Positions 18,401-43,792 of a stretch of DNA of 64,000 nucleotides are shown piece after piece. The stretch is taken from sequence record NZ_CP015284.1. One strand, written 5' to 3'. The translations under genes were made by a program, and so were the position numbers. Positions within the stretch are counted from its first letter, which is position 1. Each line of letters begins with the position of its first letter. Origin of the DNA: a plasmid. Under the pieces are notes generated by a model. The model ran no database searches, was not told the DNA's origin, and saw only the letters and a list, made by a program, of their open reading frames with translations.

Positions 18401-20948
18401 TGAACAAGCCTTTATTTCGGAAAAGATTGATGAGCTTGATGAGATCATTAGTTACGCAAAAGCTAATGATGACAAAATCACTTTTAAGCAAGCACAATCT
18501 ATGCGTAGAAGTCTTGAGGCAAGCTTAGAAACGTTGCTTGAAAACAAGACTGGTATTGATGAGTTTATCAACTTTGAAAGCCTTGGTATTGATATGCTCT
18601 TTGTTGATGAAGCCCACGGGTACAAGAATGTCCGTCCTATGACACGTTTGGGGAACGTTGCTGGTATTACCAACCGTACCTCAAAAAAGAATATGGATAT
18701 GGAAATGAAGGTGCGCGTGCTTCAAGAAGAGCATGATACACGTCACGTTGTCTTTGCGACTGGAACACCAGTTTCCAACTCTATTAGCGAAATGTATACG
18801 ATGATGAATTATCTTCAACCAGATGTCATGGAACATTTTGGTGTCAGTTTCTTTGATGCTTGGGTTGGTGCGTTTGGGATTGTTGAGAATAGTCTTGAGC
18901 TTAACCCTACTGGAGACAAGTATATTTCACGTAAACGCTTTGCTAAATTTATGAATCTCCCTGAGCTGATGGCGATTTACCGTCAGACTGCAGATATCCA
19001 AATGACTGAAGACCTTAATCTTCCAGTTCCTATGGTAGAAAAGGTAGCGGTTGAAAGTCAGTTGACGGATAACCAAAAAGTTTATTTGGATGAGCTTGTA
19101 GAACGCTCAGACCGAGTTAAAAATGGGAGTGTAGATCCTAGTGAAGATAACATGCTTAAAATCACTAGTGAAGCCAGAAAGTTGGCTTTAGATATGCGTT
19201 TGCTTGATGCAGAGCTCTATGTAAGAGCTGATGCAGACAAACTTATGCAAGTGGTTGAGCGAGTGGATAAGATTTATCACATGGAAGCTAAGCATAAAGG
19301 GACACAGATGATTTTCTCTGACCTTGGAACTCCTAATGGCAAAGGTTTCTCTGTTTATCAAGAGTTGAAAGATTTGCTTGTTGAACGTGGGATTCCAGAA
19401 GAAGAGATTGCTTTTATTCACGATGCTGCTAACAAAAAGGCTAAGCTCCAACTTCAACGTCAAATGAATGCTGGTGAGATTCGTATTCTCATGGCCTCAA
19501 CGGAAAAAGGGGGAACCGGTCTTAACGTACAACGTCGTATGAAAGCTGTTCATCACCTCGATGTGCCTTGGAAACCGTCTGATATTATCCAACGTAATGG
19601 ACGTTTGGTTCGTCAAGGAAATATCTATCGTAAGGTAAATATTTTCCACTATATCACTAAAGGAAGCTTTGATAACTACCTTTGGCAGATTCAAGAAACA
19701 AAGCTTCGTTATATTACTCAAATCATGACCAGTCGTACACCGATGCGAGCTTCAGAGGATATTGACGAGCAAACACTCTCAGCCTCTGAATTTAAAGCTA
19801 TTGCGACAGGTAATCCATATCTTAAACTTAAGATGGAACTTGATAACGAATTTGAGTTGTTGTCTAATCGTCGTAAGGCTTGGAAACGTGATATTGCTTT
19901 GTCTCAAAAACGTATTAAGCAGGCCCTTAAAGATAAGGCAATTTACGAGAAGAAACTTTCTCTATTAGTCCAGGATAAAGAGCTTGCAGAAAAGACAAGA
20001 CCTTGGAAAGAAGTGGTTGAAAAAGAAGATGGTAAGAAATATGAGGTTGAGCATAACCCATTTGTTATGACATTTGAACCAGATGGATACGAAGCAACTA
20101 AGAAAGATGTTGCAGGGAATCAACTGAACTATGCTATGCAGATGAATGTTGCCGCTGATCCACTCCATATGAAAATGACAACCCTTGCTCATTATCGTGG
20201 TTTTGTCCTTCGTGCGTTGGAACAAAAATCACCTTGGCAACCAGAACGCATGCTTGACTTGCATATTATTGGTCAAAATAGCTATGCTGTTCGTCTAGAC
20301 TTTGCGAGTGGTATTGGGACTATCCAGCGTATCAACAATGTTATTGATGGTATGGATAAACAAGCCAAACTCTTACAGGAAAACATTGAACGTTGTTCAG
20401 AAACTATTAAGCGAGGAGAAGCTGCAGATGTTTTTGCAGACCAAGCTCGTCTTGACTATGTATCAGCAAAACGTGCCATTGTTAATCCTCTTATCGAAGT
20501 AGAGGACGAGTCTAAGAAGCCTACTGTAGAACAAATTGAAGAAGCAATCAATGCTTTTGACTTGCGTTATAAGGCAGACCATCCAGAAATGGATGAGGAC
20601 TCAGATGTAAAAGTTAGCTCAATCACTGAGGAATATAGTACTAGCTATGATCCTGATGAAGAAAGCGAACTTGTTGAAGCTATCGATGAGTCAGTAGATG
20701 AAGCAGAAACTGCCTTCGAGGAAGAAGAAGTAGTTGCTAAAGAAACCGTTGAAGAAACGACTCATGTTGTTGTTTCACAAGAAGTTCTTGATATGGCTGA
20801 TGACTTCCTAGAAAGTATTTCTGAACTCTTTGGAATGACTGAAGAACATAATGATAATGTTGCTACAGAAGTAGTTTCTGAAACCTCTGTTAATGAGGTA
20901 GAAAAAGTAGAAGTTTACGAAGAAATTTCACTATTTGACTTTGTTTAA
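15432..20948 (+). CDS. DarB-like antirestriction protein: N6-adenine DNA methyltransferase fused to SNF2/DEAH helicase, acidic C-terminal tail
   Basis: NVPF (motif IV-like) in the N-terminal MTase region. Helicase motifs [11 protein letters not shown] (I), VDEAHGYKN (II), [11 protein letters not shown] (VI). 1838 aa; last about 150 aa extremely acidic. Confidence 0.75.
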
Positions 20949-23453: not shown

Positions 23454-24548
23454 TTAAAAATGATATTTTGAGTCCATAAAAATAAATTTTTTCCAGTCTT
23501 TTAAATTTGGATTCCCCATTCGTGTCAATAAACGAGTATTCAAGTCAAAATCAGGTGATTTGAAATGTTTATTGTTTCTATAAATAATTGAATTGATATG
23601 TTTTTTTAATGGTTTAGTACTTTCAAAATAATTGACAATCTGTAAAGTGTCAAATAAAGATAGGGCTGAAGGAGGTGTACCTGTTTCAGATGGTGTTAAA
23701 TTAAATAATGAAACCAAGCTCGCATTTAACTTAATATATTTTGGAGATTGGTAGCGATATACTAATGAACCGTGGGCACAAAAATTTCGAAGTGATTTAA
23801 TAATATCAAACATATTTAAAAATTCATTTCGATAAAATAATGGCATATTAAAGTCTTTCATTACCTTATTTAGTACGCTAGGATCTAAGTAATGTAGTAG
23901 ACAGATTACCTCTCCTAAGGTCATTGTTTCAACTGCGACCCAAAAAGGTACTGCAACGTGAGGATGATAGGTATAATTTGGAGCTTGGCCTGTACGAAAA
24001 GTTGTCTGACCGCTTTGGCTGGTATAACGTGAATCTGTATAAAACTGATAGTCAATGTGGTCGTTTTCGTTGATTAATTTTGTAAGATAAAAAGGTTTAA
24101 AAAGGATAAAATTATCAAATTCGTCATAGATCCTTTTGTTTTGGTAATTTACAAAGGGATAGTTGTTAGCAAATTGACTATTTCTTGGGTCTATATAATT
24201 TGATTTTAAGGTATAGTTCATAGTGTCACTTATTGTTAGACAATAAGTTTGTGTGAAATGGTGAGCTACTGAATTTTTTAACTTTGATTCAATATTATCT
24301 AAAATCTCCAGAATTGTAGTCGCCAATTTTTTATTAAATTTATAAATTGTAATAAAGTCATCTAATGTAACTTTATTGAATCGTTTGGGATTTCTACTAG
24401 AGAGTAAAAGGTTTTCAATTCCATTAAATAAATTAAAGTAATTATATTTTATTAGGGCATCATCAAGTTCTTTATCTTCAAAATACAATTTTCTTTCATG
24501 TAATTTTTGTTTTAAAGAATGACGCCCTTCGCTTTGTTTAATAGCCAT
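23454..24548 (-). CDS. abortive-infection protein, Abi_2 (AbiD/AbiF-like) family
   Basis: 364 aa. Size, Asn/Tyr/Phe-rich composition and internal motifs resemble AbiD1/AbiF. Family call from memory. Confidence 0.45.
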   Translation of the reverse strand: MAIKQSEGRHSLKQKLHERKLYFEDKELDDALIKYNYFNLFNGIENLLLSSRNPKRFNKVTLDDFITIYKFNKKLATTILEILDNIESKLKNSVAHHFTQTYCLTISDTMNYTLKSNYIDPRNSQFANNYPFVNYQNKRIYDEFDNFILFKPFYLTKLINENDHIDYQFYTDSRYTSQSGQTTFRTGQAPNYTYHPHVAVPFWVAVETMTLGEVICLLHYLDPSVLNKVMKDFNMPLFYRNEFLNMFDIIKSLRNFCAHGSLVYRYQSPKYIKLNASLVSLFNLTPSETGTPPSALSLFDTLQIVNYFESTKPLKKHINSIIYRNNKHFKSPDFDLNTRLLTRMGNPNLKDWKKFIFMDSKYHF

Positions 24549-24879: not shown

Positions 24880-26400
24880 AGTGATTTTTTTGATAAGGTG
24901 TTACAATAATATGGCATAAACAATTTTACCGATTTTGGGTAGAAGTATAATCGTAAAGTTTGTTATGCGTTATGAGGTAATACATTGTTCTGATGAGACG
25001 ATGTATAGAGGCAATCGTGTGTGGTTTGGTTGAAGTCACTTGCGATTGTCTTTTTCGTTTATCATAGAAGTCTGCGATATGACAAGGATTGCTGTGACTA
25101 GCTGAACCTATGTTATGAATGCACTTAAAGAGAATCTTTCTAGCATAGGGATTCCCACGTTTGGTGATATGTTCCTTGGCTAGAAAGTCCCCAGATTCAT
25201 AGTGTCTGAGGTCAATGCCGATAAAAGCATTGATTTGATTGGCAGAGTGAAATCGACGAATGTCACCAAGTTCACCAATAATGCTTGTCGCTGTAGTTTC
25301 AGCTATTCCAGGAATAGAGAGAAGAATCTCGTATTCTGGCAAAGGTTGAGCCAATGTTACCATCTCCTCTAAAACACTTTTTCTATATTCAGAAAGCCTA
25401 AGTAACTCCCCTGCATAGTATTTGACCTCTTCCATCATTGGAGAGGTTTTCTTGACCGCACAATAAGACTGATTAGCTAGTTTTGTAAGCTTATCTACTA
25501 AGTAAGTCACACGTTTTTCAGAGATGCGTTTTGATGTAGACTGACGGATGATAGCTCTTAATGTGGCGTCATCCAACTCCAGTACAAAACTATTACATGG
25601 AAAAGTTATGACCAAGTTCCAATATTGTTCCCCAGTTGGTGCCGACAAGATGTTTTCCAATTCAGGAAAAGTGACCTGTAAAACCTTGTGTAGACGGTTT
25701 TTAGCGCAGACAATATCTTCAGTAAGATTCTGATAGAAACGGCTAAGGTCTCGTAATTCTTGATAAAGCGCTTCTTGGACATAGCTTGGTTTACGATTGA
25801 GGATGAACTGAGACGCAGCTAGTTTTTCAGCGTCAATCTTATCAGTTTTACGTACTCGTAAGCTATCTAGTTGTTTTTTGGAGTCTAAGGGACTGAGGCG
25901 TGTATAAGCGTAACTATTATCCTCAAAGAAGGCCTGAAGACGACGAGAATAGACACCAGTCGCCTCGAAGACAATCTCTGGCTGGTGAACAGTCTTCAAG
26001 TCTCCAAGTAGTCGATTAAATCCGATGGCATCATTGGGTATGGTATAGCCATGTACTTTCTCTCCATTGATCAAGATGGCTACTTCTGAACTTGCTTTAC
26101 TCACGTCAATCCCAAAAACTACTCGCATTATATTACCTCTTTGTCTTGAATGATTCCTTGCTTTAGTGATGTCATTTTCAATACTCGACGTTTTTCGTCC
26201 CACATACTTTGATAACATTCTTCCTAAAACAGGTGTCTTGCCAGTTTTAGTTACGACGTCTAGCGCCAAAGGACTCATCGACTTAACAAGACACCTCTAC
26301 TTTAACATAACGAAAAAAAGTAGTGAGTACTTTCTCCCGTCGGAGATTTTCTCACTACTAATCTTAGTATGTTTTAATTTTACCTTAATTCGTTTGTTGT
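24880..26400 (-). mobile_element. IS110-family insertion sequence, copy 1
   Basis: About 1.5 kb block homologous, flanks included, to 34545-36055. Confidence 0.6.
24926..26128 (-). CDS. IS110-family (DEDD) transposase
   Basis: Starts MRVVFGIDVSKASSEVAI. Track ORF extends 50 codons upstream of this ATG. Confidence 0.7.
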   Translation of the reverse strand: MRVVFGIDVSKASSEVAILINGEKVHGYTIPNDAIGFNRLLGDLKTVHQPEIVFEATGVYSRRLQAFFEDNSYAYTRLSPLDSKKQLDSLRVRKTDKIDAEKLAASQFILNRKPSYVQEALYQELRDLSRFYQNLTEDIVCAKNRLHKVLQVTFPELENILSAPTGEQYWNLVITFPCNSFVLELDDATLRAIIRQSTSKRISEKRVTYLVDKLTKLANQSYCAVKKTSPMMEEVKYYAGELLRLSEYRKSVLEEMVTLAQPLPEYEILLSIPGIAETTATSIIGELGDIRRFHSANQINAFIGIDLRHYESGDFLAKEHITKRGNPYARKILFKCIHNIGSASHSNPCHIADFYDKRKRQSQVTSTKPHTIASIHRLIRTMYYLITHNKLYDYTSTQNR

Positions 26401-26860: not shown

Positions 26861-27204
26861 CCTGTTAACTATTGAACAATAGAACAAGAGGCTACTAGTA
26901 ATTTTATTTTCATGCTCAAGGCATATTCGAGTTATCTCATGACTCTTGTTCATCCAGTTTTTGTTACAGGCTAGGCAAAGCCCTATTAAAAACTACGGAT
27001 TTGTATTGTTCACCTTCATTATAAGCCGAACTTTCTTTTCTGTCATGAGTTAGCAGGCTAATCCTGCTTAGAGTTTTTGTTGCACTTCATTTTACAACAG
27101 GGTGAAAAGTTTTCTTCATGTATTTGTCGAAATTCTAAATTGAATAATCGTGAATAAATGTTATAATACAGACGAGTAAGCGATTTCTTTAGACGGAGGA
27201 AAGT

Positions 27205-27885
27205 ATGGTCGAAAAAATTCGGATGTACATCGGAGTTCTTTCTTATAAAAAGGAAGGCCGAGAGGGACAAAAGGGAACAGGTTGTATTTTTAGTTATAAA
27301 GGGAAATGGTTCTTAGCAACTGCAGCACATTGCGTTTATGATATAGATGAAGATAAATTTTACACCGATTTTAAATTTACTCAGCCAAATAGTGGAAAGG
27401 AATATATACTTGGTGATGTTTACTTACATAAATTTTGGTCGAGTTTATATGCCCCAGAGTATGATATTGCTTTTTTTAATATTTATTGTGATGATAATTT
27501 TTTTAATTTGGATAGGACTTATTTAACACCTTATTTTGAAATTTCAAATGATAACAAATTTACAATTGCTGGTTTTCCTGGAAAGATACTTAGAAATAAA
27601 TTATATATAAAGAGGGATAACAACGGGATTAGCGATAGAATGTATTCGTCGAGTTTAATAGGAATAAGGACCTGTAAAAAAGAGGGAATGTCGGGAGGAC
27701 CTTTAATATGTCAAAATGAAGATAGTTTGAGTATAGTTGGTACTATTAGTTTGTCTTTTGTATCTGAAAAAGGGATTTTATGGTGTGCTCCATGGAATAA
27801 AGACTTCAAGGCTATTCTTGAGTTTCTGACAAGTGATAAACAAGCGGAGCCAGACTTTATGGAAATGTATAATTGGAAAATATAG
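27205..27885 (+). CDS. trypsin-like serine protease, candidate lanthipeptide leader peptidase
   Basis: TAAHC (His), GMSGGP (Ser) catalytic motifs. No signal peptide. Immediately upstream of LanKC (15-nt gap). Confidence 0.55.
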   Translation: MVEKIRMYIGVLSYKKEGREGQKGTGCIFSYKGKWFLATAAHCVYDIDEDKFYTDFKFTQPNSGKEYILGDVYLHKFWSSLYAPEYDIAFFNIYCDDNFFNLDRTYLTPYFEISNDNKFTIAGFPGKILRNKLYIKRDNNGISDRMYSSSLIGIRTCKKEGMSGGPLICQNEDSLSIVGTISLSFVSEKGILWCAPWNKDFKAILEFLTSDKQAEPDFMEMYNWKI

Positions 27886-27900
27886 AAATGGAGGATAACA

Positions 27901-30465
27901 ATGGATGTAAGGTATGAAATGTATTTAGCCCCCAATAATAAATTTTACAAACGAGCAGGAGCAACCAACAAAAAGAAAACTATGCTTTATGTAAAAGATT
28001 TACCAGAGGGATGGTATTCAAAAATTGGTAAGGAGAAGCACTGGCATTATTGTGGTCCAATTGGTGTTCCTATCCCACCACAAGGTTGGAAGATTCACAT
28101 CAGTTCTACATTAGACAATGCTCAAAAAACACTTGATATCGTATCAAAAATACTAATCTCTAGAAACACTCATTTTAAATTTGTAATGAGTTCATGGGAT
28201 TTATTTGTGAAAAATTCAAAATATGGTGATAGAAGCGCTTCGGGAAAATTTATTACAATTTATCCGGCGACGATTTATTTGTTTTTTACTTTACTTGATG
28301 AATTGGATAAAGCACTTTCTGGATTAGAAAATGGGGCTTATATATTAAATGATAATCGTTGGTTCTTTGGAAATGTATACTTTAGATACGGTGGTTTCTT
28401 AGAAATGCATACTCAAGAGGGAGAAGATGGTATAATTAATGAGTACGGAGAAATTATACCAGATCAACGAATTCCTGGATATGTTGTTCCTTCTTTTGTG
28501 GAAATACCTGAGAAATTAAAAGCGATGGAGTTGGAAAAAGAAAATAAGTCTTTAGATGCTAGTAAATTAGATGATTATAATATATCTGAAGCAATGCATT
28601 TTAGTAATGGAGGTGGAGTTTATAAAGCAACTAACGTATCTTCTGGAGAAAATGTAATAATAAAGGAGGGAAGGCCGGAGGCAGGTCTGGACAGTACAGG
28701 AAAAGATGGTTTTAAAAGGCTATCAATTGAATTTGAAACATTGTCTAAATTGGCAGATGTTGATGAAGTTGTTGATGTTTATGAATATTTTAAAGCGTGG
28801 GAAAATGTTTATTTAGTTGAAGAAGTGGTAAATGGGATTCCTCTCCAATCTTGGATTGCTCAAAATTATCCATTTGGTGGATCAGAGGATAAAAAGAAAA
28901 GCTATCTTCGTAAGACGTTGGATATTACAGAAAAAATAAAAACTGGTTTACAAAAGATACACGATAAAGATGTTGGAATAGGTGATTTATCACCATCTAA
29001 TATTTTAATTAACAATGATACACTCGAAATCAAGTTTATAGATTTCGAAACTGCGGGAGTTGCTGATGCTAAATATTCACCAAGTTTAGCCACTCCGGGT
29101 TTTGTTTCAAAGTATTCTAAAACAAGGAAACAATCTGATTGGTTTAGTTTTTATAGGATTGTATATTCTATGTTAGCACCAATTGCTCCAATTCAAGATA
29201 TCGAAATTAAAAATGAACAAAAAATAGATAAGTGGATTTTAATGACATTTGGTAGCGAGGCATATAATTACGTTAATAACTTAAAAAAACTTCTTCCTCT
29301 ATCTAAGCGTATGTATTACTCAGATGTTCAAGAAAACAGATTGGATTATGATTTAGATAATTTAACTTCAAAAGTTCGTCTAGGAATAATATCTCATTTA
29401 CAACCTAGTAAGAAGCAATTGATTCCGGGAGACATAAGGCAATTTGAATACTCAGGTGGTATGTATAATGTTTTAACTGGTGGTTTTGGGGTAATAATGT
29501 CACTTGTTAGAACTGGGGAAATTTCACAATCTATTAAAGAATGGGCAATTAGATATTCAAAGGAAAAGTATTTGGCGGAGTTAGATTCGGGACTATTTTC
29601 TGGAAAATCAGGAATTGCTTGTATATTATTTGAATTAGGAGAAATCCAACGCTCTAAGGAAATAATTGGCTCAATTACTATTCCAAATGAAGCTTCAGAT
29701 ATTTCTCTAATGACAGGTCTATCTGGGATAGGACTTGCACTTTTATCATTTTATACTTCATTAAATGAACATTCATATTTAGAAAAGGCTACCAAAGCTG
29801 CTAATGAGATAAAAAATATCTTTAGTAAAAATACTGAAATCTATTCAAAAGATCCAGATTTTTTTCCTAAAGGTCTATTTGATGGATGGAGTGGAGCTGT
29901 GATGTTTTTCGGTGCATTATATACAGTCACAAAAAATAAAGAGTGGCTTGATTTTGCAGAGAAAATGATGAGTAGAGAATTAGAAAGTTGTGTTTTAGAT
30001 GATGATGGAATTCTTCATATTGAAGATGAGCAAAGACTACTTCCCTATTTAGCGGGAGGAGGAGTGGGTGTAGCAGTCGCTCTACTTTCTCTTGCTAAGA
30101 AAACAAATAAAGAATTTTACTTTAAAAAATTTGAACAGACTCTTCCATTAGCCTCAACTGTTTGTTGTTATAATAGTGGTCTATTTAGAGGATATGCTGG
30201 TTTTTTACTTTTTGTTTCCTTTTTAGAACAAGAGTATGGTATAATAAATAGAGAGAAAACGCTGACATTACTGAGTACAATTCAATTGTATGCAGTAACA
30301 ACGACAGGGCAGGAAGTAATGTTTCCTGGAGACTATGGCTACAGATTGTCAGGTGATTTATTTTCTGGTTCTTCAGGTGTACTTATTGCTCTAGAAGCAA
30401 TGAGAGGGAAGAGTTGGAAAAACTGGATTCCATTGATTTCTGAAACGATGGATGTGTTATTGTGA
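27901..30465 (+). CDS. class III lanthipeptide synthetase LanKC (lyase - Ser/Thr kinase - LanC-like cyclase lacking Cys/His zinc ligands)
   Basis: Central kinase motifs (VGIGDLSPSNILIN, IDFETAG). C-terminal LanC-like Gly-rich repeats (SGKSGIACILFELG, GLSGIGLALLSF, GWSGAVMFFGALY, GGGVGVAVALL, SGSSGVLIAL). No CHG zinc-ligand motif. Confidence 0.7.
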   Translation: MDVRYEMYLAPNNKFYKRAGATNKKKTMLYVKDLPEGWYSKIGKEKHWHYCGPIGVPIPPQGWKIHISSTLDNAQKTLDIVSKILISRNTHFKFVMSSWDLFVKNSKYGDRSASGKFITIYPATIYLFFTLLDELDKALSGLENGAYILNDNRWFFGNVYFRYGGFLEMHTQEGEDGIINEYGEIIPDQRIPGYVVPSFVEIPEKLKAMELEKENKSLDASKLDDYNISEAMHFSNGGGVYKATNVSSGENVIIKEGRPEAGLDSTGKDGFKRLSIEFETLSKLADVDEVVDVYEYFKAWENVYLVEEVVNGIPLQSWIAQNYPFGGSEDKKKSYLRKTLDITEKIKTGLQKIHDKDVGIGDLSPSNILINNDTLEIKFIDFETAGVADAKYSPSLATPGFVSKYSKTRKQSDWFSFYRIVYSMLAPIAPIQDIEIKNEQKIDKWILMTFGSEAYNYVNNLKKLLPLSKRMYYSDVQENRLDYDLDNLTSKVRLGIISHLQPSKKQLIPGDIRQFEYSGGMYNVLTGGFGVIMSLVRTGEISQSIKEWAIRYSKEKYLAELDSGLFSGKSGIACILFELGEIQRSKEIIGSITIPNEASDISLMTGLSGIGLALLSFYTSLNEHSYLEKATKAANEIKNIFSKNTEIYSKDPDFFPKGLFDGWSGAVMFFGALYTVTKNKEWLDFAEKMMSRELESCVLDDDGILHIEDEQRLLPYLAGGGVGVAVALLSLAKKTNKEFYFKKFEQTLPLASTVCCYNSGLFRGYAGFLLFVSFLEQEYGIINREKTLTLLSTIQLYAVTTTGQEVMFPGDYGYRLSGDLFSGSSGVLIALEAMRGKSWKNWIPLISETMDVLL

Positions 30466-30499
30466 TTGAGTTTTTATTAAGATATTATATTTTATATAA

Positions 30500-31557
30500 T
30501 CCCAATTTGTAAAATTAAGCTAGACAGAAAAAGCCATCTATGTTAGGCTCAGATAAACACCACATTTGTCTGAAAGGAACTAACATAAATGACCTATACT
30601 CATCTTATCACAAACGAGCTTGTAATGATAGAGGCTTACTATCAAGAAGACATAAAAGTTTCAGATATTGTGACTTCACTTGGCAGATCAAAACAGACAA
30701 TCTACAATGTCATCAACTATCTGAAAGAGGGGCACTCTGCTTATGATTACTATAACCGATATAAAATCAATAAGAAACGCTGTGGCAGGAATAAAACCAG
30801 TCTTACGCAATCAGAAAAAGATTTTATCCAAACTCATTTAGAACAAAATTGGAGCCTTGATGTCATTAAAGGAACTTATCCAGATAGGGTTGCTTGTTCT
30901 ATGAGAACTCTCTATCGACTAGCAGACCATGGTATTCTAAAGAAAGAGGATCTCCCTTGGAAAGGCAAAAGAAAACCAAATGGTCATAGCGAAAAACGAG
31001 GAAAACAAGCGTTGCGCAGAGATTTAAGTGAGAGAGCAGACAGTCATCCTAATTTTAAGACGGGATTCGGTCATCTAGAAGGGGATACAATTGTGGGAGA
31101 AAAACACAAAAGTGCAGTCATTACCTTAGTAGAATGCTTCTCAAAAGCCATCATCACACTGAAAATCAATGGATGGAAAGCAAGTGATATTGAGGCCTCC
31201 ATCAATCAATGGTTGTCTCAAGTTCCCAGTCATCTCTTTAAGTCGATAACTTTTGATTGTGGGAAAGAATTTTCTAATTGGAAATCTATTTCGAATGCAC
31301 ATGACATTGATATTTTCTTTGCGGATCCAGGATGTCCTGGTCAAAGAGGTCTCAATGAACATTCTAATGGCTTATTAAGACGAAATGGATTACCGAAACA
31401 GATGGTTTTTACTAATATTTCTCAAAAATATTTATCAGCTATAGCTGATAAAAGAAATAGAATTTCTAGGAAATCATTGAATTATCAATCACCATACCAA
31501 GTTTTTCTGAGTTACTTGAAAAGTCTAACTTAATTTAACAATTTAGGAATATAGGGT
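30500..31557 (+). mobile_element. IS30-family insertion sequence between LanKC and the precursor genes
   Basis: Full-length transposase. Right boundary placed where homology to the duplicated precursor cassette (40497 onward) begins. Confidence 0.55.
30589..31533 (+). CDS. IS30-family transposase
   Basis: 314 aa, N-terminal HTH, DDE region (GHLEGDTIVG...FADPGCPGQRGLNEHSNGLLR). Confidence 0.8.
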   Translation: MTYTHLITNELVMIEAYYQEDIKVSDIVTSLGRSKQTIYNVINYLKEGHSAYDYYNRYKINKKRCGRNKTSLTQSEKDFIQTHLEQNWSLDVIKGTYPDRVACSMRTLYRLADHGILKKEDLPWKGKRKPNGHSEKRGKQALRRDLSERADSHPNFKTGFGHLEGDTIVGEKHKSAVITLVECFSKAIITLKINGWKASDIEASINQWLSQVPSHLFKSITFDCGKEFSNWKSISNAHDIDIFFADPGCPGQRGLNEHSNGLLRRNGLPKQMVFTNISQKYLSAIADKRNRISRKSLNYQSPYQVFLSYLKSLT

Positions 31558-31634
31558 ATTATTAAGTGAAATCAATTTTTTTACAATAGATTCATACAGA
31601 GTCACTTATTCTTAAATAATGAAGGAGAACAGAA

Positions 31635-31754
31635 ATGAAAAATATCTTATCTTTACAACAACTTAAAGTAAAAGAAAATACTAAATTGATGGCTAAATCA
31701 TCAAAAAGCATAAACTGTAAAAATAGTAGCCATGCTAGCTGGTTTGTTTGCTAG
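31635..31754 (+). CDS. class III lanthipeptide precursor A1 (39 aa)
   Basis: MKNILSLQQLKVKENTKLMAKSSKSINCKNSSHASWFVC. GGAG RBS. Leader ILSLQ (ILxLQ-like). Two S-xx-S-xx(x)-C motifs (SSKSINC, SSHASWFVC). Confidence 0.6.
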   Translation: MKNILSLQQLKVKENTKLMAKSSKSINCKNSSHASWFVC

Positions 31755-31810
31755 TCTCTAAAATTAAAATTACTTTTCATTTTTTATCTTAGTTTTATAG
31801 GAGGAATCAA

Positions 31811-31924
31811 ATGAAGAAAATACTATCTTTACAGCAATTAAAAAAAACAGAAAGAGCTAAAACGAAATCTAGTATGAGTTTGAACTGTCAAATGAGTAGT
31901 AATAATAGCTGGTTTTTCTGCTAA
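31811..31924 (+). CDS. class III lanthipeptide precursor A2 (37 aa)
   Basis: MKKILSLQQLKKTERAKTKSSMSLNCQMSSNNSWFFC. AGGAGG RBS. Motifs SSMSLNC and SSNNSWFFC. Confidence 0.6.
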   Translation: MKKILSLQQLKKTERAKTKSSMSLNCQMSSNNSWFFC

Positions 31925-32008
31925 AAAAGTATTTTAAATGTTTACCTAATAATACCCTAACTAGCCTTGAAAGTTTTTCAAGGCTAGTTGCATAGTGAGA
32001 GTAATGAT

Positions 32009-33730
32009 ATGAAAAAAAATAATTATTTAGATATAGCTTATTTAAAAAAGTATCTACCAAATAATTTTTATCTTTTCTTTTTGAGCTTACTAATACTAAC
32101 TGGTACGATTGTCTCTTTAAGTATTCCAATTTTTATTATGGGAATAATTAATAATATGAAAAATGGGATTCATATCAGTAGTATATTAGTTGTTATTTCA
32201 CTTTTCCTTATAGAATTATGCTTCACAGCAGTTTCGTATTATTTCATTAATAAAACATCGGAAAGGATTGTAGAGCAGATACGTAACGAAATATGGATGC
32301 ACATTTTAAAGTTGCCAGTCTCATATTTTGATAAAAATCGTTATGGGGCGGTTGTAACAAATATTATTCATGATACTGAAGAAATATTAGAATTTTTCAA
32401 CAGTCAAATAAGCTCTTTTTTTACAAATGTTATATCTATAATTGGCTCTATTGTAATTTTGTTCGTATTGGATTGGAAGTTAGCAATTTTATTAGGTGTG
32501 GCTGTTCCTATAGCTGTTCTGCTTACTAGTTATTTTGGTAATCAAGAATACACGATATCAATGAGATATAGAGAAAGTATTGCGCACTTACAGAATAATC
32601 TTACATCTACTCTTTCAAAAATTAGGTTAGTAAAATCGACGACTTCGGAAGAGACCGAGTTTCAGAAAGAGAGTGAATTATTTAATTCTTTATATAAGAC
32701 TGGTGTAGAAGAAGGAAAAATATTGGGTATTCTTTCACCAATTTCTTCTATGGTAGTTATGCTACTCTTAGTTGTAACCTTTGGTTACGGTACCTACCGG
32801 GTATCAAATGGAACCCTATCGAGTGGAGCATTAGTTGCAAGTATTGTATATTTATTTCAATTAGCTGATCCGTTTTCGCAAATTATTTCGTTTTTCACAA
32901 GCTATCAAAAATTTAGAGCCTCGGTCGTGAAGATAGGAGAATTACTTCAAGAACCGATTGAAGCTGATTTGGTTTTGGAGTTCAAACAGGCTAAATGTAC
33001 AGATAGAGATGGTTTATTATTTAAAAATATCGATTTCTCTTATACAAAAGAAGATGTCATATTTAATAACCTAGACTTTGAATTTCAATTGTACAAAACA
33101 ACGGCCATTATTGGTAGGAGTGGAGTTGGAAAAACAACAATATTTTCATTGATAGAAAGATTTTATGTACCAACTCAAGGTAGTATCTTATTCCGCAATA
33201 AAGATATTGCCAGTATTCCTTTAAAAACTTGGCGGTCTAAAATTGCTTATTTATCGCAGGATATTGATTTGTCATACGGGACACTTTTAGAAAATTTAAC
33301 TTACGGTATACACAATTATACGATGAACAAAGTAGATAACTTAGTTGAGGAATTTGGATTAAAATCATTTTTAGATAGTCTAGAAATGGGATATAATACT
33401 ATCATTGGCGAGAAGGGAGTAACAATTTCGGGTGGTCAAAAGCAGCGAATTGCCCTTATTAGGGCAATATTGAAAGATGCTGATATTTACTTACTTGATG
33501 AGCCAACCTCAGCACTTGATGCACATACAGAAAAACTTGTTCAAATCACCTTAGAAAGATATTTGAAAGGAAAGACTGTCCTAGTTATAGCACATAGATT
33601 GAAAACAATTACCTCTGCAGATGAAATTGTTATTGTAAATAATAAGAAAATTGAATATCACGGTACTCACAATGAATTATTAAATTCTTGTCACTTGTAT
33701 AATCAGTTACTGGAGGATAGTGTACTATAA
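32009..33730 (+). CDS. ABC transporter, fused permease/ATPase, lanthipeptide exporter candidate (no C39 peptidase domain)
   Basis: Six N-terminal TM segments. Walker A GRSGVGKTT, signature ISGGQKQR, Walker B IYLLDEPTSALD. Confidence 0.8.
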   Translation: MKKNNYLDIAYLKKYLPNNFYLFFLSLLILTGTIVSLSIPIFIMGIINNMKNGIHISSILVVISLFLIELCFTAVSYYFINKTSERIVEQIRNEIWMHILKLPVSYFDKNRYGAVVTNIIHDTEEILEFFNSQISSFFTNVISIIGSIVILFVLDWKLAILLGVAVPIAVLLTSYFGNQEYTISMRYRESIAHLQNNLTSTLSKIRLVKSTTSEETEFQKESELFNSLYKTGVEEGKILGILSPISSMVVMLLLVVTFGYGTYRVSNGTLSSGALVASIVYLFQLADPFSQIISFFTSYQKFRASVVKIGELLQEPIEADLVLEFKQAKCTDRDGLLFKNIDFSYTKEDVIFNNLDFEFQLYKTTAIIGRSGVGKTTIFSLIERFYVPTQGSILFRNKDIASIPLKTWRSKIAYLSQDIDLSYGTLLENLTYGIHNYTMNKVDNLVEEFGLKSFLDSLEMGYNTIIGEKGVTISGGQKQRIALIRAILKDADIYLLDEPTSALDAHTEKLVQITLERYLKGKTVLVIAHRLKTITSADEIVIVNNKKIEYHGTHNELLNSCHLYNQLLEDSVL

Positions 33731-34544: not shown

Positions 34545-36055
34545 GACACCTTATCTGGTATTTTTTGAAACAAGGTGTTACAATAATACGGCATAGACAG
34601 CCTTATCGATTTTGGGTCAAAGAGTAATCGTAAAGTTTGTTATGCGTAATGAGGTAATACATTGTTCGAATGAGACGATGTATAGAGGCAATCGTATGTG
34701 GCTTAGTTGAAGCTATTGTCGATTGTCTTTTTCGTTTCTCATAGAAATCTGCGATATGGCAGGGATTGGTATGGCTAGCTGAAGCGATATTGTGAATACA
34801 TTTGTACAGAATTTTTTTGCATAAGGATTCCCACGCTTAGTAATATGCTCTTGACCTAGGAAATCTCCCGATTCATAGTGTTTGAGATCAATACCGATAA
34901 AAGCGTTGATTTGATTAGCAGACGTAAAGCGACGAATGTCTCCTAATTCACCAATAACGCTTGTAGCCGTTGTCTCTGCGATGCCAGGAATAGAGAGAAG
35001 AATCTCATATTCAGGTAGAGGTTTAGCTAACTCTATCAACTGTTCTAAAACTTGTTCCCGACGGTTTGTCAACCTTATAAGTTCCTGTGCATTATACTTA
35101 ACCTCTTCTATTATAGGAGAGGTTTTTGAAATGGCAGAATAAGATTGCTTTGCCAGTCCAACTAACTTCTCAGCCAAGTTATCTACTCTGTTCTCTGAAA
35201 TGCGTTTAGAGGTTGACTGGCGAATAGTCTCTTTCAACTCAACTTCCGATAATTCCAGCACCCAATGCTTTGTTGGGAAGATGGACACGAGATTCCAATA
35301 CTGCTCACCTGCAGGAGTAGATAGTAGAATCCCGATTTCTGGGAAGGCGACTTGAAGAACTTTGTGCAGCCTATTCTTCGTCCTTACGATATCCTCTGTC
35401 AGATTTTGGTAGAACCGGCTAAGATCATGCAAGTTTTGATAGACTTTTTCTTGAACATAAGTTGGCTTACGGTTTAAAACGAATTGTGACGAAGCTAGTT
35501 TCTCTGCGTCAATTTTATCGGTTTTCCGGACTCGTAAGCTATCAAGTTGCTTTTTAGCTTCCAAAGGATTAAGACGTGTATAGTCATAGCTGTTTTCTTC
35601 TAGAAAAGCCTGAAGTCGGCGAGAGTAGACACCAGTAGCTTCGGAAATAATTTCGGGGTTACTCACGGTCTTTAGGTCCTTCAGTAGACGAGAAAATCCG
35701 ATAATGTCATTAGACATAGTATAACCGTGAACCCTTTCACCATTCACAAAAATAGCAACTTCTGAGCTTGCTTTACTCACATCAATTCCAAATACTGTCC
35801 GCATTATGTTTACCTCTTTGTCTTGAACGATTCCTTATTTTAGTGATTTCATTTTCAATACTCGACGTCTAGCGTCCAACATACTTTGATAAAATTCCAT
35901 CTAAAACAGGTGTCTTGCCAGTTTTTTATACGGCGTCTAGCGCCAAAAGAAGCCACGACTTAACAAGACACCTCTACTTTAACACAAAGAAAAAGTAGTG
36001 AGTACTCACTCCCGTCGGAGATTTCTTCACTACTAATCTTAGTATGTTTTTTATA
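34545..36055 (-). mobile_element. IS110-family insertion sequence, copy 2 (same orientation as copy 1)
   Basis: Homologous to 24880-26400, flanks included. Confidence 0.6.
34713..35804 (-). CDS. IS110-family transposase, C-terminally frameshifted relative to copy 1
   Basis: MRTVFGIDVSKASSEVAI.... Diverges after ...GNPYAKK because of an indel near 34800. Confidence 0.6.
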   Translation of the reverse strand: MRTVFGIDVSKASSEVAIFVNGERVHGYTMSNDIIGFSRLLKDLKTVSNPEIISEATGVYSRRLQAFLEENSYDYTRLNPLEAKKQLDSLRVRKTDKIDAEKLASSQFVLNRKPTYVQEKVYQNLHDLSRFYQNLTEDIVRTKNRLHKVLQVAFPEIGILLSTPAGEQYWNLVSIFPTKHWVLELSEVELKETIRQSTSKRISENRVDNLAEKLVGLAKQSYSAISKTSPIIEEVKYNAQELIRLTNRREQVLEQLIELAKPLPEYEILLSIPGIAETTATSVIGELGDIRRFTSANQINAFIGIDLKHYESGDFLGQEHITKRGNPYAKKFCTNVFTISLQLAIPIPAISQISMRNEKDNRQ

Positions 36056-37390
36056 TTCAGAGTGATGAAAACACGCTTCCTAAAGTTAATAAAGTTTCTA
36101 AAACCGAATCCCAGACGTTTGATGTCTTTGATAAGCTTATTGGTGCCCTCCAATTTTGCATTTGAGTAATGTGTTTCTAGTGCGTTTTTGATGTATTGTT
36201 TGTGTCTAAGAAAGGTTCTAAAGACAGTTTGAAAGTAGTGATTGACCTTACTTATATTCTCCTCTATGAGTTCAAAAAACTCATCAATTCTTTTTTCTGA
36301 AAATAAAAAAGCAAAAACTTGTAGAGGTTATAGTCATTAGCGAGCTCTTTTGAAAAGTCCAATATCTTCACGGTGACTTCATTTGACTTAAAGTTTGACA
36401 AAAGGTCTTTGAGTGAAATGAGTTACAAGATAACTTACGGCTATCCTTTTGGAAGAGTCTCCAGTGATTTTTCAAGGCTCGGTAGGGTAGTGACTTCTTA
36501 TCAAACTGATTCATAATGGCAATTCTTGTCTTCAAAAAGGCTCGACCAAGGTGTTGGATGATGTGGAAACGATCAATAATGATTTCGGCATTTGGGAAAA
36601 GTCTACGAGCTAGTGGGATATAGGCTCCTGACATATCCATTGTAATAAACTGCACTTTTTGGCGAACCTTCAATGGATACTTCAAAAAGTGGTTTCGAAT
36701 AGTGGTTTGACGGCGATTATCAAGGATGGTTATGAGTTTGTTGGTCTCATAGTTTTGTGCCACAAAAGCGAGTTCACCTTTCTTGAACCCAAACTCATCC
36801 CAAGACATAACAGCTGGGAGCTTGTCATAATGCTCCTTGAAAGTAAACTAGTCAAGCTTACGATAGACAGTGGACGTTGATACACGAAGTCTTCTGGCAA
36901 TATCTGTTAGTGACACCTTTTCAGTAAGGAGCTGTGCAACTTTTTGCCGGACTAGATTGGAGATTTGGCAGTTTTTCTCAACGATTGATGTCTTAGCTAC
37001 CGTGACTCTCCTACAACTTTTACACTGGAAACGACGCTTTTTAAGACGTAATAGTGTAGGTGTTCCAGCTTGTTCAAGGAGAGAAATTTTAGAAGGCTTT
37101 TGAAAGTCATATGTGATCAACTTTCCTTGGCAGTGAGGACATGATGGTGCAGGGGAATCCAGTTTTGCATGAATTTCGATATGAGTATCAGTTTCAAAAA
37201 CAAGAGAAATAATGATGTTAGGGTCTTTAATTCCGATTAATTCTGTGGTATTCTTAATAAGTCTCATAAGTTCTTCCTAATGATGGTTTGGTTGCTTTTC
37301 ATTATAGTTCTTATGGGACTTTTTGTCTGCATTCAAAAAGCTCTATAATCTCTACAGTGGTTTTACCCACTACAGAAATTATAGAGCCTG
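36040..37390 (-). mobile_element. ISL3-family IS, disrupted copy
   Basis: Right end ...aaagctctataatctctacagtggttttacccactacagaaattatagagcc, identical to the end of the intact copy at 52526. Confidence 0.6.
36056..37270 (-). pseudogene. ISL3-family transposase with frameshifts
   Basis: ORFs 36848..37267 and 36368..36808 plus a further out-of-frame C-terminal region 36060-36370, all homologous to the transposase at 51147..52403. Confidence 0.7.
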
Positions 37391-37509
37391 TTACACCTTG
37401 TTATTGAATACTTACGAATAAATAGCCAATTTTTTAAAATTATTGACAAAAAAATATTATTGTCTTACAATAATATCGAAGAAAGAATTATTGTAAGGCA
37501 ATAATTGAG

Positions 37510-38040
37510 GTGTTTAACATGAAAAAAATATTAAAAATAACAAGTCATCTCTTGTCTCTAATGAGGTATCCTGTTTGGGGAATAAATTTCCTGTTATTTT
37601 TAGGAATAGTAGGAGTTTTATTTGGGGGACAGAGAAGTCATTGGATGTTTACATTTGACTATGGTGATTCCATTATTGATGTTCCAATAATTTTTCCATT
37701 AGTTATTCTTATATTGTTGATTATAATTTTTGTTTTTATTATCCAGTTATTAAAAATTTGGAGTAAGTTGTTATTTGGTTTCAGTAAGGGTCAATTTTTT
37801 AGTGGTGAGAATCTTAAAAAATTAAAAAGATCGATGATATTTCTAGTTTTGGTGACTGCTATTCAATTATTGATTAATCTAATATTCAACTATTTAAGTG
37901 TAGAAAATGTTAGTGAAGTATTTGATTTTTCGTTGAAAAATTACGTGGTACATACTGTATTCATATTATTTAACGCTATATTGATTATCGTATTGGAAAA
38001 AGGAAAAAATATTCAAAAAGAAAATGAGGACTTTATTTAA
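37510..38040 (+). CDS. DUF2975-like multi-pass membrane protein
   Basis: Four to five TM helices. Followed by a small XRE regulator, the YozG-type pairing. Confidence 0.45.
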   Translation: MFNMKKILKITSHLLSLMRYPVWGINFLLFLGIVGVLFGGQRSHWMFTFDYGDSIIDVPIIFPLVILILLIIIFVFIIQLLKIWSKLLFGFSKGQFFSGENLKKLKRSMIFLVLVTAIQLLINLIFNYLSVENVSEVFDFSLKNYVVHTVFILFNAILIIVLEKGKNIQKENEDFI

Positions 38041-38269
38041 TGTAATGGATAAGATACAAATAAATTTAGAAAAGTTAATTAAAGAAAAGAAACTTACATC
38101 TAAAGAAGTTGCAAAAAGAATAAATATCACAGAGGCAAATCTATCAATTTTGAAAACGGGAAAAGCAAAAGGCATACGTTTCACTACACTCTTACGAATA
38201 TGTAGAGCACTTGATTGTCAACCTGGTGATATTTTAGAGTATGTTAGGAGTGAAAACCATGAAGATTAA
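38024..38269 (+). CDS. small XRE-family HTH regulator (YozG-like)
   Basis: LTSKEVAKRINITEANLSILKTGKAKGIRFTTLLRICRAL. Confidence 0.6.
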   Translation: MRTLFNVMDKIQINLEKLIKEKKLTSKEVAKRINITEANLSILKTGKAKGIRFTTLLRICRALDCQPGDILEYVRSENHED

Positions 38270-38711
38270 AAAAGTAATATTATGTATGATCTTTACTCTT
38301 GCAAGCATTATGCTAGTTTCATGTAGTATAAATGAAACAGTAAAAGATGTTACACAAGAAATAGAACAACAAATATCCAAAGATGATACAGATAATTTAG
38401 GTATAACTTATATTACGGAACAAAAAGAAGGGGAGACTCTAAAAGCATCATTTACTGATTTTGATGGGGTTATTTATGTAATTAGTACTAAAGAGAATAT
38501 TGAGTCAATAAAGAATTCAGATTTTAGTTTGGATAATAAAAATTTCGAAGATGTTAAAACTGATTCCTACGATGATTTCAATATTCGTTATAAAAATAAA
38601 ACTTATTTTTCGGTTAAAAAACTTGATATAGAGTCAAATAATATTACTTCATTAAAATTTAATTCAGATTATTCAAAGAGTATTTTATTAGTTTATAGAA
38701 CAAAAAACTAG
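38259..38711 (+). CDS. lipoprotein
   Basis: MKIKKVILCMIFTLASIMLVSC lipobox (LVSC). Confidence 0.55.
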   Translation: MKIKKVILCMIFTLASIMLVSCSINETVKDVTQEIEQQISKDDTDNLGITYITEQKEGETLKASFTDFDGVIYVISTKENIESIKNSDFSLDNKNFEDVKTDSYDDFNIRYKNKTYFSVKKLDIESNNITSLKFNSDYSKSILLVYRTKN

Positions 38712-39479: not shown

Positions 39480-39890
39480 ATATCATGGCCAAATTATTAA
39501 TGGACGATATAAAGCAAGTATCGGTCATAATAATTTGAGATTTGTGTGAACGAAAAGGTGTTATCATACATGAAGCTAATGCTTGTTCAGATTATATTCG
39601 CATATTAGTCAGTATATCATCCAAATTAAGTGTTTTAGGTTTTATGGGCTACTTAAAAGGTAAAAGTTGATTGATGATTTTTGGCAAATGTGTGAATTTT
39701 AAATACAAATAAGGGAACAGAAAATTTTGGTGTAGTGGTTACTTATTATGGTCGCAATCAAAAAGTGATTGCAGAATATATACAAAATCAATTGCAAGAT
39801 GACAGGGTAGCTGACCAACTGACCTTGCTTGAGACAGTTGATCCGTTTACAAGCGAAGCAAATAAAAAAGTAGGATAGTGGTGCGCAAGG
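39480..39890 (+). pseudogene. IS200/IS605-family TnpA (Y1 HUH) remnant with frameshifts/stops
   Basis: Three frames together read SKLSVLGFMGYLKGKS, NRKFWCSGY and IAEYIQNQLQDDRVADQL, matching conserved IS200 TnpA segments (MGYLKGKSS, REFWCRGYYV, IQDYIKHQLEEDK). Confidence 0.5.
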
Positions 39891-40231: not shown

Positions 40232-40585
40232 AGCTTCTTCTCTAGCAGAAAAGCTTCAGACTTGATACCACCACAAAACACGATTCATGTTAACTTCCGA
40301 TTTTGAAGATAATGTGGAACTTAATATGAAAAATAACTCGATGAGGTAATTTTTTATTTTACTTTCCAAATTTAAAAAAGATATGATATAATATGTAAGA
40401 AGAAAGCGCTATCACTACCCTGAAATGAGGTGAAATTACTTTCCGATATGAAAATAATATTCAATAATTACAATATTCACTAACATATTGGGTATTCGAT
40501 TTTTCTAATTTATTAAGTGAAATTAATTCTTTTACAATAGATTTATACAGAGTCACTTATTCTTAAATAATGAAGGAGAACAGAA

Positions 40586-40705: not shown

Positions 40706-40760
40706 TCTCTAAAATTAAATTACTTTTCATTTTTTATCTTAGTTTTATAGGAGGAATCAA

Positions 40761-43746: not shown

Positions 43747-43792
43747 CCGTCCCCACTTTTGGCGAAGTAAGACGGATTATTTTCGTTTAAAA
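43747..43792 (+). terminator. rho-independent terminator
   Basis: aatccgtccccacttttggcgaagtaagacggatt + ATTTTCG. Confidence 0.5.

Follow-up and report, generated by a model that had tools for sequence, protein, structure and literature searches.

A probable class III lanthipeptide gene cluster of the LanIII-43 family on a mobile element of Streptococcus salivarius

The window analysed here is a 64-kb stretch of sequence record NZ_CP015284.1, in which positions 27205-33730 encode a trypsin-like protease, an 854-amino-acid class III synthetase (LanKC), an IS30-family insertion sequence (IS), two precursor peptides (A1 and A2) and an ATP-binding cassette (ABC) exporter. We assign a probability of about 0.85 to the reading that these genes belong to a class III lanthipeptide cluster of Streptococcus salivarius, borne on an integrative conjugative element (ICE), which is a member of the Bacillota-wide LanIII-43 family and is potentially functional if A1, A2 and the ABC gene are still transcribed. 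Beyond 33730 the cluster extends to about 40898, adding genes for a DUF2975 membrane protein, a helix-turn-helix (HTH) protein and a lipoprotein, together with two further precursors, A1' and A3 (Table 1). The accessory trio (37510-38711) is cut off from the core by IS110 and ISL3 insertions, and IS200 debris lies beyond it.

By exact-sequence look-up, identical protein sequences are already filed in RefSeq/GenBank under S. salivarius. RefSeq names the synthetase (WP_084871559.1 / ARI60668.1) 'class III lanthionine synthetase LanKC', the protease (WP_084871558.1) 'trypsin-like serine peptidase' and both A1 (WP_198166467.1) and A2 (WP_198166468.1) 'class III lanthipeptide'. The type of system is known and already annotated, and the S. 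salivarius cluster is a new member of the LanIII-43-type family. A first-pass annotation, made from the sequence alone, had proposed a class III LanKC cluster in a Streptococcus-like background at 27205-33730. The host and the NF038151 score of the synthetase (784 bits) bear this out, and every element listed for the interval lies where it was placed; A1', A3 and the three accessory genes were missed, the cluster reaching to about 40898. Its framing of the system as novel does not hold, as RefSeq already names these proteins and a Bacillus cereus member of the family has already been produced heterologously. The cluster, which it could not place among known families, belongs to the NCBIfam family NF038159 and to the LanIII-43 family. 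The accompanying view of class III lanthipeptides as mostly actinobacterial is outdated: class III clusters are abundant in Firmicutes (PMC7268733), and the structure of PneKC from S. pneumoniae has been solved (PMC11330476).

Literature searches on the S. salivarius cluster and on the A1 and A2 core strings, with supplements and subscription papers outside their coverage, returned nothing relevant. S. salivarius, an abundant commensal of the human oral cavity and gut that is also sold as a probiotic, is known for salivaricins of classes I and II. A class III cluster would extend its competitive or signalling repertoire by an unstudied peptide family.

Synthetase, precursor peptides and proposed pathway

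The synthetase passes the class III equivalog model NF038151 (784.2 bits, cutoff 575) and fails the class IV (LanL) model NF038150 (291.3 bits, cutoff 650), the comparison of profiles that the first-pass annotation had suggested as a check. It consists of a RamC_N lyase domain (PF25816, 170.4 bits against a cutoff of 27, residues 32-210), a Pkinase domain (PF00069, 68.9 bits) and a LANC_like domain (PF05147, 47.4 bits). Residues K64, H66 and K116 are present in the lyase domain, whose GWKIH and GKFITIYP motifs are common to TherKC, and the kinase-domain residues K255, D362 (GDLSPSN) and D381 (DFE) are conserved with the same enzyme. Sequence matches to solved structures are led by TherKC (540 bits) and ThurKC (527 bits), followed by PneKC/SalKC (about 255 bits) and CurKC (88 bits). 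In the cyclase domain, the S. salivarius enzyme is 36% identical to TherKC and 32% identical to ThurKC, these two being 49% identical to each other; GDIRQ (R513), D651, D661 and F762 are common to all three. The positions equivalent to the zinc ligands, S726/F770/D771 in ThurKC (PMC10604976), were mapped through a HMMER alignment in which the chain numbering is the native numbering minus 3. They are A718, F762 and R763 in the S. salivarius synthetase, with neither Cys nor His at any of the three; the zinc ligands are therefore absent from its cyclase. The architecture first proposed, a kinase core followed by a LanC-like part without a zinc motif, is thereby upheld.

Membership in the published subclasses III-a and III-c was considered and rejected. 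The subclass criteria (PMC13504147), applied here to the cyclase domain only, comprise identities of >74% for III-a and >55% for III-c and motifs including GILxxNPLYWLP and the R685 hotspot. The S. salivarius enzyme contains the LIPGDIRQ and GLFDGWSG subclass motifs; its cyclase identity is 32% and 36%, respectively, its C-terminal motif is AMRGKSWKNWIPL, K680 takes the place of R685, and R610 and D771 of ThurKC are replaced by Met and Arg. Judged by its sequence, LanKC would fall in neither III-a nor III-c by the authors' criteria, though it is nearest to these two. Concerning the criteria themselves, PMC13504147 gives an identity between LanKC subclasses of <20% and describes the III-c cyclase motifs as absent elsewhere, yet the ThurKC and TherKC cyclases align at 49%, and ThurKC (III-a) itself carries GDIRQ, RSGLSGIGL and NPLYWLP. 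In view of this discrepancy between 49% and <20%, the published thresholds may use another metric.

The precursors A1 (MKNILSLQQLKVKENTKLMAKSSKSINCKNSSHASWFVC) and A2 (MKKILSLQQLKKTERAKTKSSMSLNCQMSSNNSWFFC) both exceed the curated cutoff of 30 bits of NF038159 (lanthi_III_b), as does A3 (MKKILSLQTLISTEKATLCNASNLSVTCKKQSSISLFLCVKTTDK), which has a third Cys and a six-residue C-terminal tail. With E-values of 3.8e-15 for A1 and 4.6e-11 for A2, their motif pattern is not a product of chance. Each of the two comprises an ILSLQ leader, an SxxSxxC motif and a subsequent SxxSxxxC motif, the cores being SSKSINCKNSSHASWFVC after Lys21 in A1 and SSMSLNCQMSSNNSWFFC after Lys19 in A2. A Lys stands immediately before the first core Ser in both, and likewise in the A1-type peptides of Niallia and Priestia, where ...LKAK runs directly into SSKS.... 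In an alignment of seven sequences that includes LanIII-43, the residues L5, S6, L7, Q8, S22, S25, C28, S32, S35, F37 and C39 are invariant, and with them both Ser-Ser-Cys triplets. The first-pass annotation had described two tandem precursors of 37-39 amino acids with an ILSLQ leader and a doubled S-xx-S-xx(x)-C motif, and had proposed searching for that motif in homologous precursors; the description is matched by the NF038159 scores (55.6 and 42.6 bits) and the recurrence by the alignment.

The second A1-type gene lies within a 275-bp duplication (40510-40783 against 31559-31833, 97.5% identical) that holds A1/A1' and 76 nt of upstream sequence. Two related loci described below, L002 (14634-15333) and L001 (16116-16945), have the distal A1'+A3 pair in inverted orientation and, in front of it, a second copy of roughly the final 160-240 bp of the LanKC gene. 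From this copy it follows that the distal pair arose by partial duplication of the region spanning the LanKC 3' end and A1. In the window, the LanKC-end fragment is missing beside the distal pair. As for gene calling, A1 is annotated, and so is the distal A1 copy in one contig, while A2 and A3 are uncalled in the contigs shown.

Based on homology, we propose the following pathway. The four precursors, which fall into three types (A1/A1', A2 and A3), would be bound by LanKC at their helical (I/V)LSLQ leader. The kinase domain would phosphorylate core Ser residues at the expense of nucleoside triphosphate, and the lyase domain would eliminate the phosphate to give dehydroalanine. The zinc-free cyclase would then add two Cys thiols across SxxSxxC and SxxSxxxC, most likely yielding two labionin (or lanthionine) systems per peptide, and labionin-type products are plausible. 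The calculated monoisotopic masses of the unmodified cores are 1983.893 (A1), 2001.850 (A1') and 2071.790 (A2), and loss of six waters would lower them to 1875.830, 1893.786 and 1963.726. Within the cytoplasm, the S1 protease would remove the short leader after the Lys directly before the core, and the MsbA-like ABC transporter would export the product. The DUF2975 protein and the lipoprotein probably serve self-protection and the HTH protein regulation. Transcription of A1, A2 and the ABC gene could occur by read-through or from an IS-derived promoter.

Table 1 Features of the S. salivarius class III lanthipeptide cluster and its insertion sequences, in window coordinates.
Feature	Position	Strand	Evidence or remark
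Promoter-like site (predicted)	27140-27167	+	TTGAAT, 16-nt spacer, TATAAT, upstream TG; 10/12 consensus
S1 serine protease, 226 aa, candidate leader peptidase	27205-27885	+	Pfam Trypsin 26.6 bits, cutoff 20.6
LanKC, class III synthetase, 854 aa	27901-30465	+	NF038151, Pfam, PDB matches, residue mapping
Target-site duplication AAT, left	30498-30500		Last 3 nt of the empty-site TATAAT hexamer
IS30-family element, 1,047 bp	30501-31547	+	NF033563, inverted repeats, empty site
IS30 transposase, 314 aa	30589-31533	+	NF033563 230 bits; co-oriented with cluster
Candidate hybrid outward promoter	31535-31562	+	-35 TTAACA in IS30 right repeat, -10 TATTAT in flank; 10/12
Target-site duplication AAT, right	31548-31550		
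Precursor A1, 39 aa	31635-31754	+	NF038159 55.6 bits; ILSLQQL leader, Lys21
Precursor A2, 37 aa	31811-31924	+	NF038159 42.6 bits; Lys19 before core
Hairpin, candidate attenuator or transcript stabiliser	31958-31990	+	Perfect 15 bp, no T-tract; between A2 and ABC gene
ABC exporter, 573 aa (580 aa from TTG 31988)	32009-33730	+	Pfam ABC_membrane, ABC_tran
IS110-family transposase	34713-35804	-	Pfam DEDD_Tnp_IS110, Transposase_20; between ABC and DUF2975 genes
ISL3-family transposase, frameshifted	36368-37267	-	Split into 146-aa and 139-aa open reading frames
Promoter-like site before DUF2975 (predicted)	37443-37471	+	11/12 consensus matches
DUF2975 membrane protein, 176 aa	37510-38040	+	Pfam DUF2975 30.3 bits
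Xre/HTH_26-type DNA-binding protein, 81 aa, candidate regulator	38024-38269	+	HTH_26 (PF13443) on orthologs
Predicted lipoprotein, 150-156 aa, candidate LanI-like immunity protein	38241-38711	+	Lipobox LVSC; orthologs with lipobox in L002, L010
Degenerate IS200/IS605 remnant	~39542-39878	+	Y1_Tnp 26.7 bits on 42-aa fragment; between lipoprotein gene and distal precursors
Precursor A1', 39 aa	40586-40705	+	Single difference from A1: I26M
Precursor A3, 45 aa	40761-40898	+	NF038159 50.2 bits; orthologs in S. sanguinis, L001, L010, Niallia, Priestia

Conservation in relatives, protease, exporter and accessory genes

Relatives free of the insertion sequences share the cluster. These comprise a gut Streptococcus metagenome-assembled genome (MAG) whose proteins match S. 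vestibularis (L001, LanKC identity 83%), S. sanguinis (L002 and L003, 77%) and the loci L010-L012 (62%). Homology to them starts at 27133 (blastn), and their gene order is protease, LanKC, A1-type, A2-type, ABC, DUF2975, HTH_26, lipoprotein (146-166 aa) and a distal pair of A1-type and A3-type precursors. The A2-type gene is absent in L010, the distal A3-type peptides measure 45-48 aa, and the distal pair occurs in either orientation. The protease, LanKC and ABC genes are under long-term purifying selection, with ratios of nonsynonymous to synonymous substitution rates of 0.09-0.23 against the S. vestibularis-like and S. sanguinis orthologs.

The association also extends beyond streptococci. 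A protease directly 5' of LanKC, together with precursors of 39-45 aa, is found in six of seven further lineages (L001, L002, L010, Niallia, Priestia and Staphylococcus pseudintermedius), the proteases being 77% to as little as about 25-30% identical. In five of these six an ABC exporter gene comes next, the S. pseudintermedius locus as fetched ending in a second LanKC gene. A Lactobacillus MAG breaks the pattern: it has genes for protease, peptide and ABC transporter, and LanKC is missing within 6 kb. Precursors of the NF038159 type adjoin LanKC in L001-L003, L010-L017 and L019-L022. A lack of homologs of the small genes beside LanKC elsewhere had been named by the first-pass annotation as grounds for abandoning its proposal; such homologs occur in all lineages sampled for them, namely the S. 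vestibularis-like one, S. sanguinis, L010-L012, Niallia, Priestia and S. pseudintermedius. The Niallia and Priestia clusters encode the same three peptide types, with six or two copies of the A1-type gene, whose core SSKSI(Q/N)CK(G/T)SSHASWF(F/I)C is near-identical to that of S. salivarius.

Two of these loci show peculiarities of their own. In S. pseudintermedius (L016, 6001-12647), an S1 protease gene is followed by genes for two LanKCs (881 and 850 aa, cyclases 32% identical), with three dissimilar precursors placed around and between these two genes, possibly a dual-synthetase class III cluster. The Lactobacillus sp. MAG (L018, 6001-8971) has, besides the protease homolog and an ABC transporter, a gene for a 39-aa peptide like those of NF038159 (MKKVLKLQHIATDTSVTLRKASSLSVNCKVLSTISLAIC); the cluster may be an orphan or depend on a synthetase supplied in trans.

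The protease gene ends 15 nt ahead of the LanKC start. Its His42/Asp87/Ser163 triad is invariant among 29 aligned family members, none of which, the window protease included, has a signal peptide. The AlphaFold2 model has a mean confidence (pLDDT) of 92.4, and its closest folds are the small bacterial S1 proteases AL20 (3cp7) and Anisep (3wy8). In an exhaustive HMMER search of 1.84 billion proteins, the family amounts to only 43 representative clusters. P1 specificity is not readable from the 29-member alignment, where the position-189 equivalent and the 213-226 region are unconserved, nor from the fold search, which returns generic S1 neighbours. The trypsin-like protease of the B. cereus LanIII-43 cluster cleaves its precursor after 'Lys24' (PMC9576775), and we infer from the orthologous Niallia and Priestia clusters that the window protease is homologous to it. 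A compact cytoplasmic leader protease, predicted to be Lys-directed, could serve class III engineering. A promoter-like site is placed 38 nt 5' of the protease start.

The ABC exporter is an MsbA-like half-transporter without a C39 peptidase domain in Pfam. As first annotated, a cytoplasmic trypsin-like protease precedes LanKC and a dedicated exporter follows the precursors: the protease passes the Trypsin model, and the exporter, with its ABC_membrane and ABC_tran domains, holds a conserved position in all relatives. The hairpin between A2 and the exporter gene has a minimum free energy of -20.9 kcal/mol (z = -3.74, 0/200 shuffles as good). Its conservation extends to L001, L002 and L019, and in L001 one A-U pair has become G-C by a compensatory change. 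It resembles the stem-loops of lantibiotic operons that set the ratio of precursor to machinery transcripts. Of the accessory genes, the DUF2975 gene is conserved 3' of the ABC gene in L001, L002, L010 and L013. The HTH reading frame of the window itself gives NCBIfam HTH-regulator matches below cutoff, the best being VanU (24.8 bits against 150), and the lipoprotein matches no Pfam or NCBIfam family.

Insertion sequences and alternative readings

The IS30-family element is placed 32 nt 3' of the LanKC stop and 84 nt (plus one AAT copy) 5' of A1. Its terminal inverted repeats are imperfect and span 25 to about 31 nt. Excising the element and one AAT in silico restores the L001/L002 spacer exactly (...TTTTATATAATATAGGGTATT...), and synteny with the IS-free relatives breaks exactly at the element's ends (blastn). 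In its transposase, its inverted repeats and its 3-bp duplication in an AT-rich, partly palindromic site, the element is typical of the IS30 family, the only notable point being its co-oriented position between synthetase and substrates. That position agrees with the initial description of an intact IS30 splitting the cluster; the word 'split' is an overstatement, as the insertion is intergenic and no coding sequence is disrupted. The candidate hybrid promoter at its right end sits 73 nt 5' of A1, and no plus-strand terminator was found between the transposase gene and A1. In a consensus scan, promoter-like sites are no commoner than in shuffled sequence, so that the promoter candidates are hypothetical.

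The distribution of the insertions was followed in an assembly collection whose index lists the exact LanKC allele in 224 blocks and a second one in 242. For the two alleles, 23 and 24 contigs were read, and IS content was judged on 10 contigs; these are ENA metagenome assemblies whose record names resemble human-gut study codes. IS30, IS110 and ISL3 are present in all 10 contigs, so that the insertions predate the spread of the mobile element within S. salivarius. The IS110 insertion at 34713-35804 is absent from L001, L002 and L010, and other S. salivarius contigs retain a full ISL3 transposase of 431 aa. All of the insertions lie between genes, leaving the coding sequences of the cluster uninterrupted.

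Several observations weigh against a functional, labionin-forming pathway, and the first group of them concerns expression. IS30 parts A1, A2 and the ABC gene both from the upstream promoter and from the TATAAT of the original spacer, and it is fixed in the S. salivarius contigs examined. Between the two alleles that carry the insertions there are 18 nucleotide differences, 11 nonsynonymous and 7 synonymous, a ratio indistinguishable from neutral; this number is too small to resolve any constraint after the IS30 insertion. From this perspective, the cluster would be a decaying relic in which insertions have uncoupled genes from promoters and reading frames are intact only for lack of time. The four IS insertions within about 14 kb, the landing of IS30 on the TATAAT of the LanKC-A1 spacer and the decay of ISL3 and of one IS30 copy themselves in some contigs are in keeping with such a history. 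Decay is nonetheless rather unlikely, given that all ten cluster reading frames are full length in both widely indexed alleles and that the insertions are confined to spacers. Moreover, the IS30 transposase is co-oriented with no terminator before A1, the hybrid -35/-10 candidate faces A1, the DUF2975 operon has a promoter-like site of its own (11/12), and the A1' copy retains 76 nt of native upstream sequence.

The remaining adverse points concern maturation. The cores hold internal Lys residues that a trypsin-like enzyme would need to spare, and R610 and D771 of ThurKC, both required there for ring formation (PMC10604976), are M604 and R763 in the window LanKC. All protease-linked LanKCs keep the equivalents of R519, D657 and F770, and in all of them R610 is replaced (by M, I, A, S or T) and D771 is replaced (by R or Q). 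The same replacements, with R or Gln for D771, occur also in the clade that includes active B. cereus-type enzymes. This natural replacement of two residues essential in ThurKC is a ready test of labionin formation by metal-free cyclases.

With D771, which ThurKC needs for labionin, replaced by Arg, the products might instead be lanthionine-bridged, SapB-like peptides and not labionin peptides, and would then serve as surfactants or signals and not as antibiotics. Such products would fit the weak matches of all precursors to the SapB/AmfS and RamS models, the formation of lanthionine from Sx2Sx2-3C in some class III peptides (PMC7268733) and the lack of antimicrobial activity of LanIII-43 (PMC9576775). 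We regard this as unlikely, if worth serious consideration: the SapB-family scores (17.6-23.6 bits) lie under the cutoff of 25, tandem mass spectrometry (MS/MS) of the homologous LanIII-43 product suggests two labionins (PMC9576775), and labionin is what ThurKC and TherKC, the closest enzymes of solved structure, produce.

The gene content bears the marks of an integrative conjugative or mobilisable element. Upstream of the cluster lie genes for a DUF3854 protein, a VirB11-like ATPase, PcfJ (with PcfK in sister contigs), a 1,838-aa SNF2-methylase and AbiD. Other parts of the window encode two tyrosine recombinases, a Rep3 initiator, a LexA-like repressor, ImpB and an LPXTG protein, along with an antitoxin RNA of the RatA type. 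The protease gene of L001 has a relaxase gene directly 5' of it, and the flanks of the cluster differ in S. sanguinis (L002). As the flanks vary among relatives, the module from protease to A3 behaves as a cargo unit.

That the kinase-protease pair is instead an anti-phage or abortive-infection module of the mobile element is highly improbable and was rejected: the PADLOC matches (kinase to PD-T4-6, MkoA and mad6, protease to LmuA and RT-protease) are domain-level only and cover the generic kinase or protease fold at 29-53 bits against 784 bits for the full-length class III model, and, for all the nearby AbiD and SNF2-methylase genes and the existence of actinobacterial class I lanthipeptides with anti-phage function (bioRxiv 10.1101/2024.06.26.600839), the pair is always accompanied by precursors, and by the ABC exporter where the locus reaches that far, also in chromosomal, non-ICE contexts.

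From Bacillaceae to streptococci, the A1 core SSKSI(N/Q)CK(N/G)SSHASWF(V/F/I)C hardly varies. More speculatively, and in our estimation improbable, protease-linked LanKC clusters could encode a conserved set of three peptide types whose activity needs their combination, and their synthetases could form a distinct LanKC subclass with altered cyclase catalysis, having Arg or Gln for Asp771 of ThurKC and lacking Arg610. If the combination were needed, this would explain the inactivity of the A3-type LanIII-43 alone. On the same speculative reading, the S. salivarius system, riding an ICE among defence genes, could serve niche competition in the human mouth and gut or functions tied to the element, such as kin discrimination or phage defence.

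Further features of the window were noted alongside the cluster. The 64 kb are exceptionally dense in insertion sequences (IS110 twice, IS3, ISL3 twice, IS30 and IS200 debris). The two IS110 copies lie at 24926-26278 (-) and 34713-35804 (-), the second transposase being N-terminally shorter (363 against 450 aa). Rfam matches to Srn266, 'Streptococcus RNA 266', at 37279-37388 and 52415-52524 (92 and 97 bits) each adjoin an ISL3 transposase gene, and one of them overlaps a 20-bp hairpin; this small RNA looks like a terminal part of ISL3 and not an independent gene. The 1,838-aa fusion (15432-20948) joins an N-terminal methyltransferase-like region to an SNF2 helicase, shows weak PADLOC likeness to ZorD and DrmD, and is conserved 5' of the cluster in all S. 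salivarius contigs. Fusions of this kind are typical of anti-restriction or defence proteins of conjugative elements. The AbiD/Abi_2 abortive-infection gene (23454-24548, -) has copies of IS3 and IS110 on its flanks and separates the cluster from the ICE backbone. Rfam matches to rli28 (43527-43710, +, 55 bits) and RatA antitoxin RNA (43775-43866, -, 51.7 bits) suggest a type I toxin-antitoxin locus on the mobile element.

Comparison with characterised systems

The closest characterised counterpart is LanIII-43 of B. cereus, family III 43 of Walker et al. 2020, which was produced heterologously by Ayikpoe et al. 2022 (PMC9576775). The product from Escherichia coli carried 5 dehydrations, gave MS/MS data suggesting 2 labionins and had no antimicrobial activity (PMC9576775). 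With the S. salivarius cluster, LanIII-43 shares a small trypsin-like protease, a LanKC and precursors of the NF038159 family, its own precursor (MSRFDVLSLQSLKKHKNNDKPIGSNVSVNCKTQSGLSLFFCVSPK) scoring 59.1 bits. The precursor layout is common to both, with a (V/I)LSLQ leader, SxxSxNC and then SxxSxFxC. Its direct counterpart is A3, an A3-type peptide of S. sanguinis having been aligned with LanIII-43. The N-terminal 133 aa of the B. cereus LanKC, the part compared, are 47% identical to the window LanKC, 69% to that of Niallia and 62% to that of Priestia; the window and Niallia enzymes are 39% identical over their full length. The refactored B. cereus construct itself contained one precursor and LanKC only. 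The clusters differ in that S. salivarius has A1 and A2 after LanKC, A1' and A3 at a distal position and additional DUF2975, HTH and lipoprotein genes, all within an ICE-borne cluster ridden with insertion sequences. Only the A3 type was covered by the B. cereus study; the A1 and A2 types, which end C-terminally in SWFxC, are unreported in structure and activity.

Among enzymes of solved structure, ThurKC of the andalusicin pathway (III-a, B. thuringiensis, PDB 8SAO) and TherKC (III-c, Thermoactinomyces, PDB 9WJ0) are the best matches over the full length. Both form labionin without metal (PMC10604976, PMC13504147), and they share with the S. salivarius enzyme the three-domain layout and the metal-free cyclase. 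The dimer hotspot R685 of TherKC is Lys in the window LanKC. Their substrates carry an S(S/T)xSxxC motif and are Thr-rich with a single ring motif, whereas the S. salivarius precursors have two. Their clusters use M16 or other metalloproteases, in contrast to the S1 protease of S. salivarius.

PneKC of S. pneumoniae (PDB 8W7A/9UGQ with SalKC; III-b; PMC11330476) likewise belongs to a streptococcal class III system with SxxSxxxC motifs. PneKC and SalKC are far more distant from the window LanKC (about 255 bits) and differ in the cyclase signature. In the PneKC cluster the protease is an S9 prolyl oligopeptidase, the ABC transporter is heterodimeric, and the precursors are longer and unrelated. 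As PneKC is streptococcal, class III lanthipeptides are not foreign to Streptococcus.

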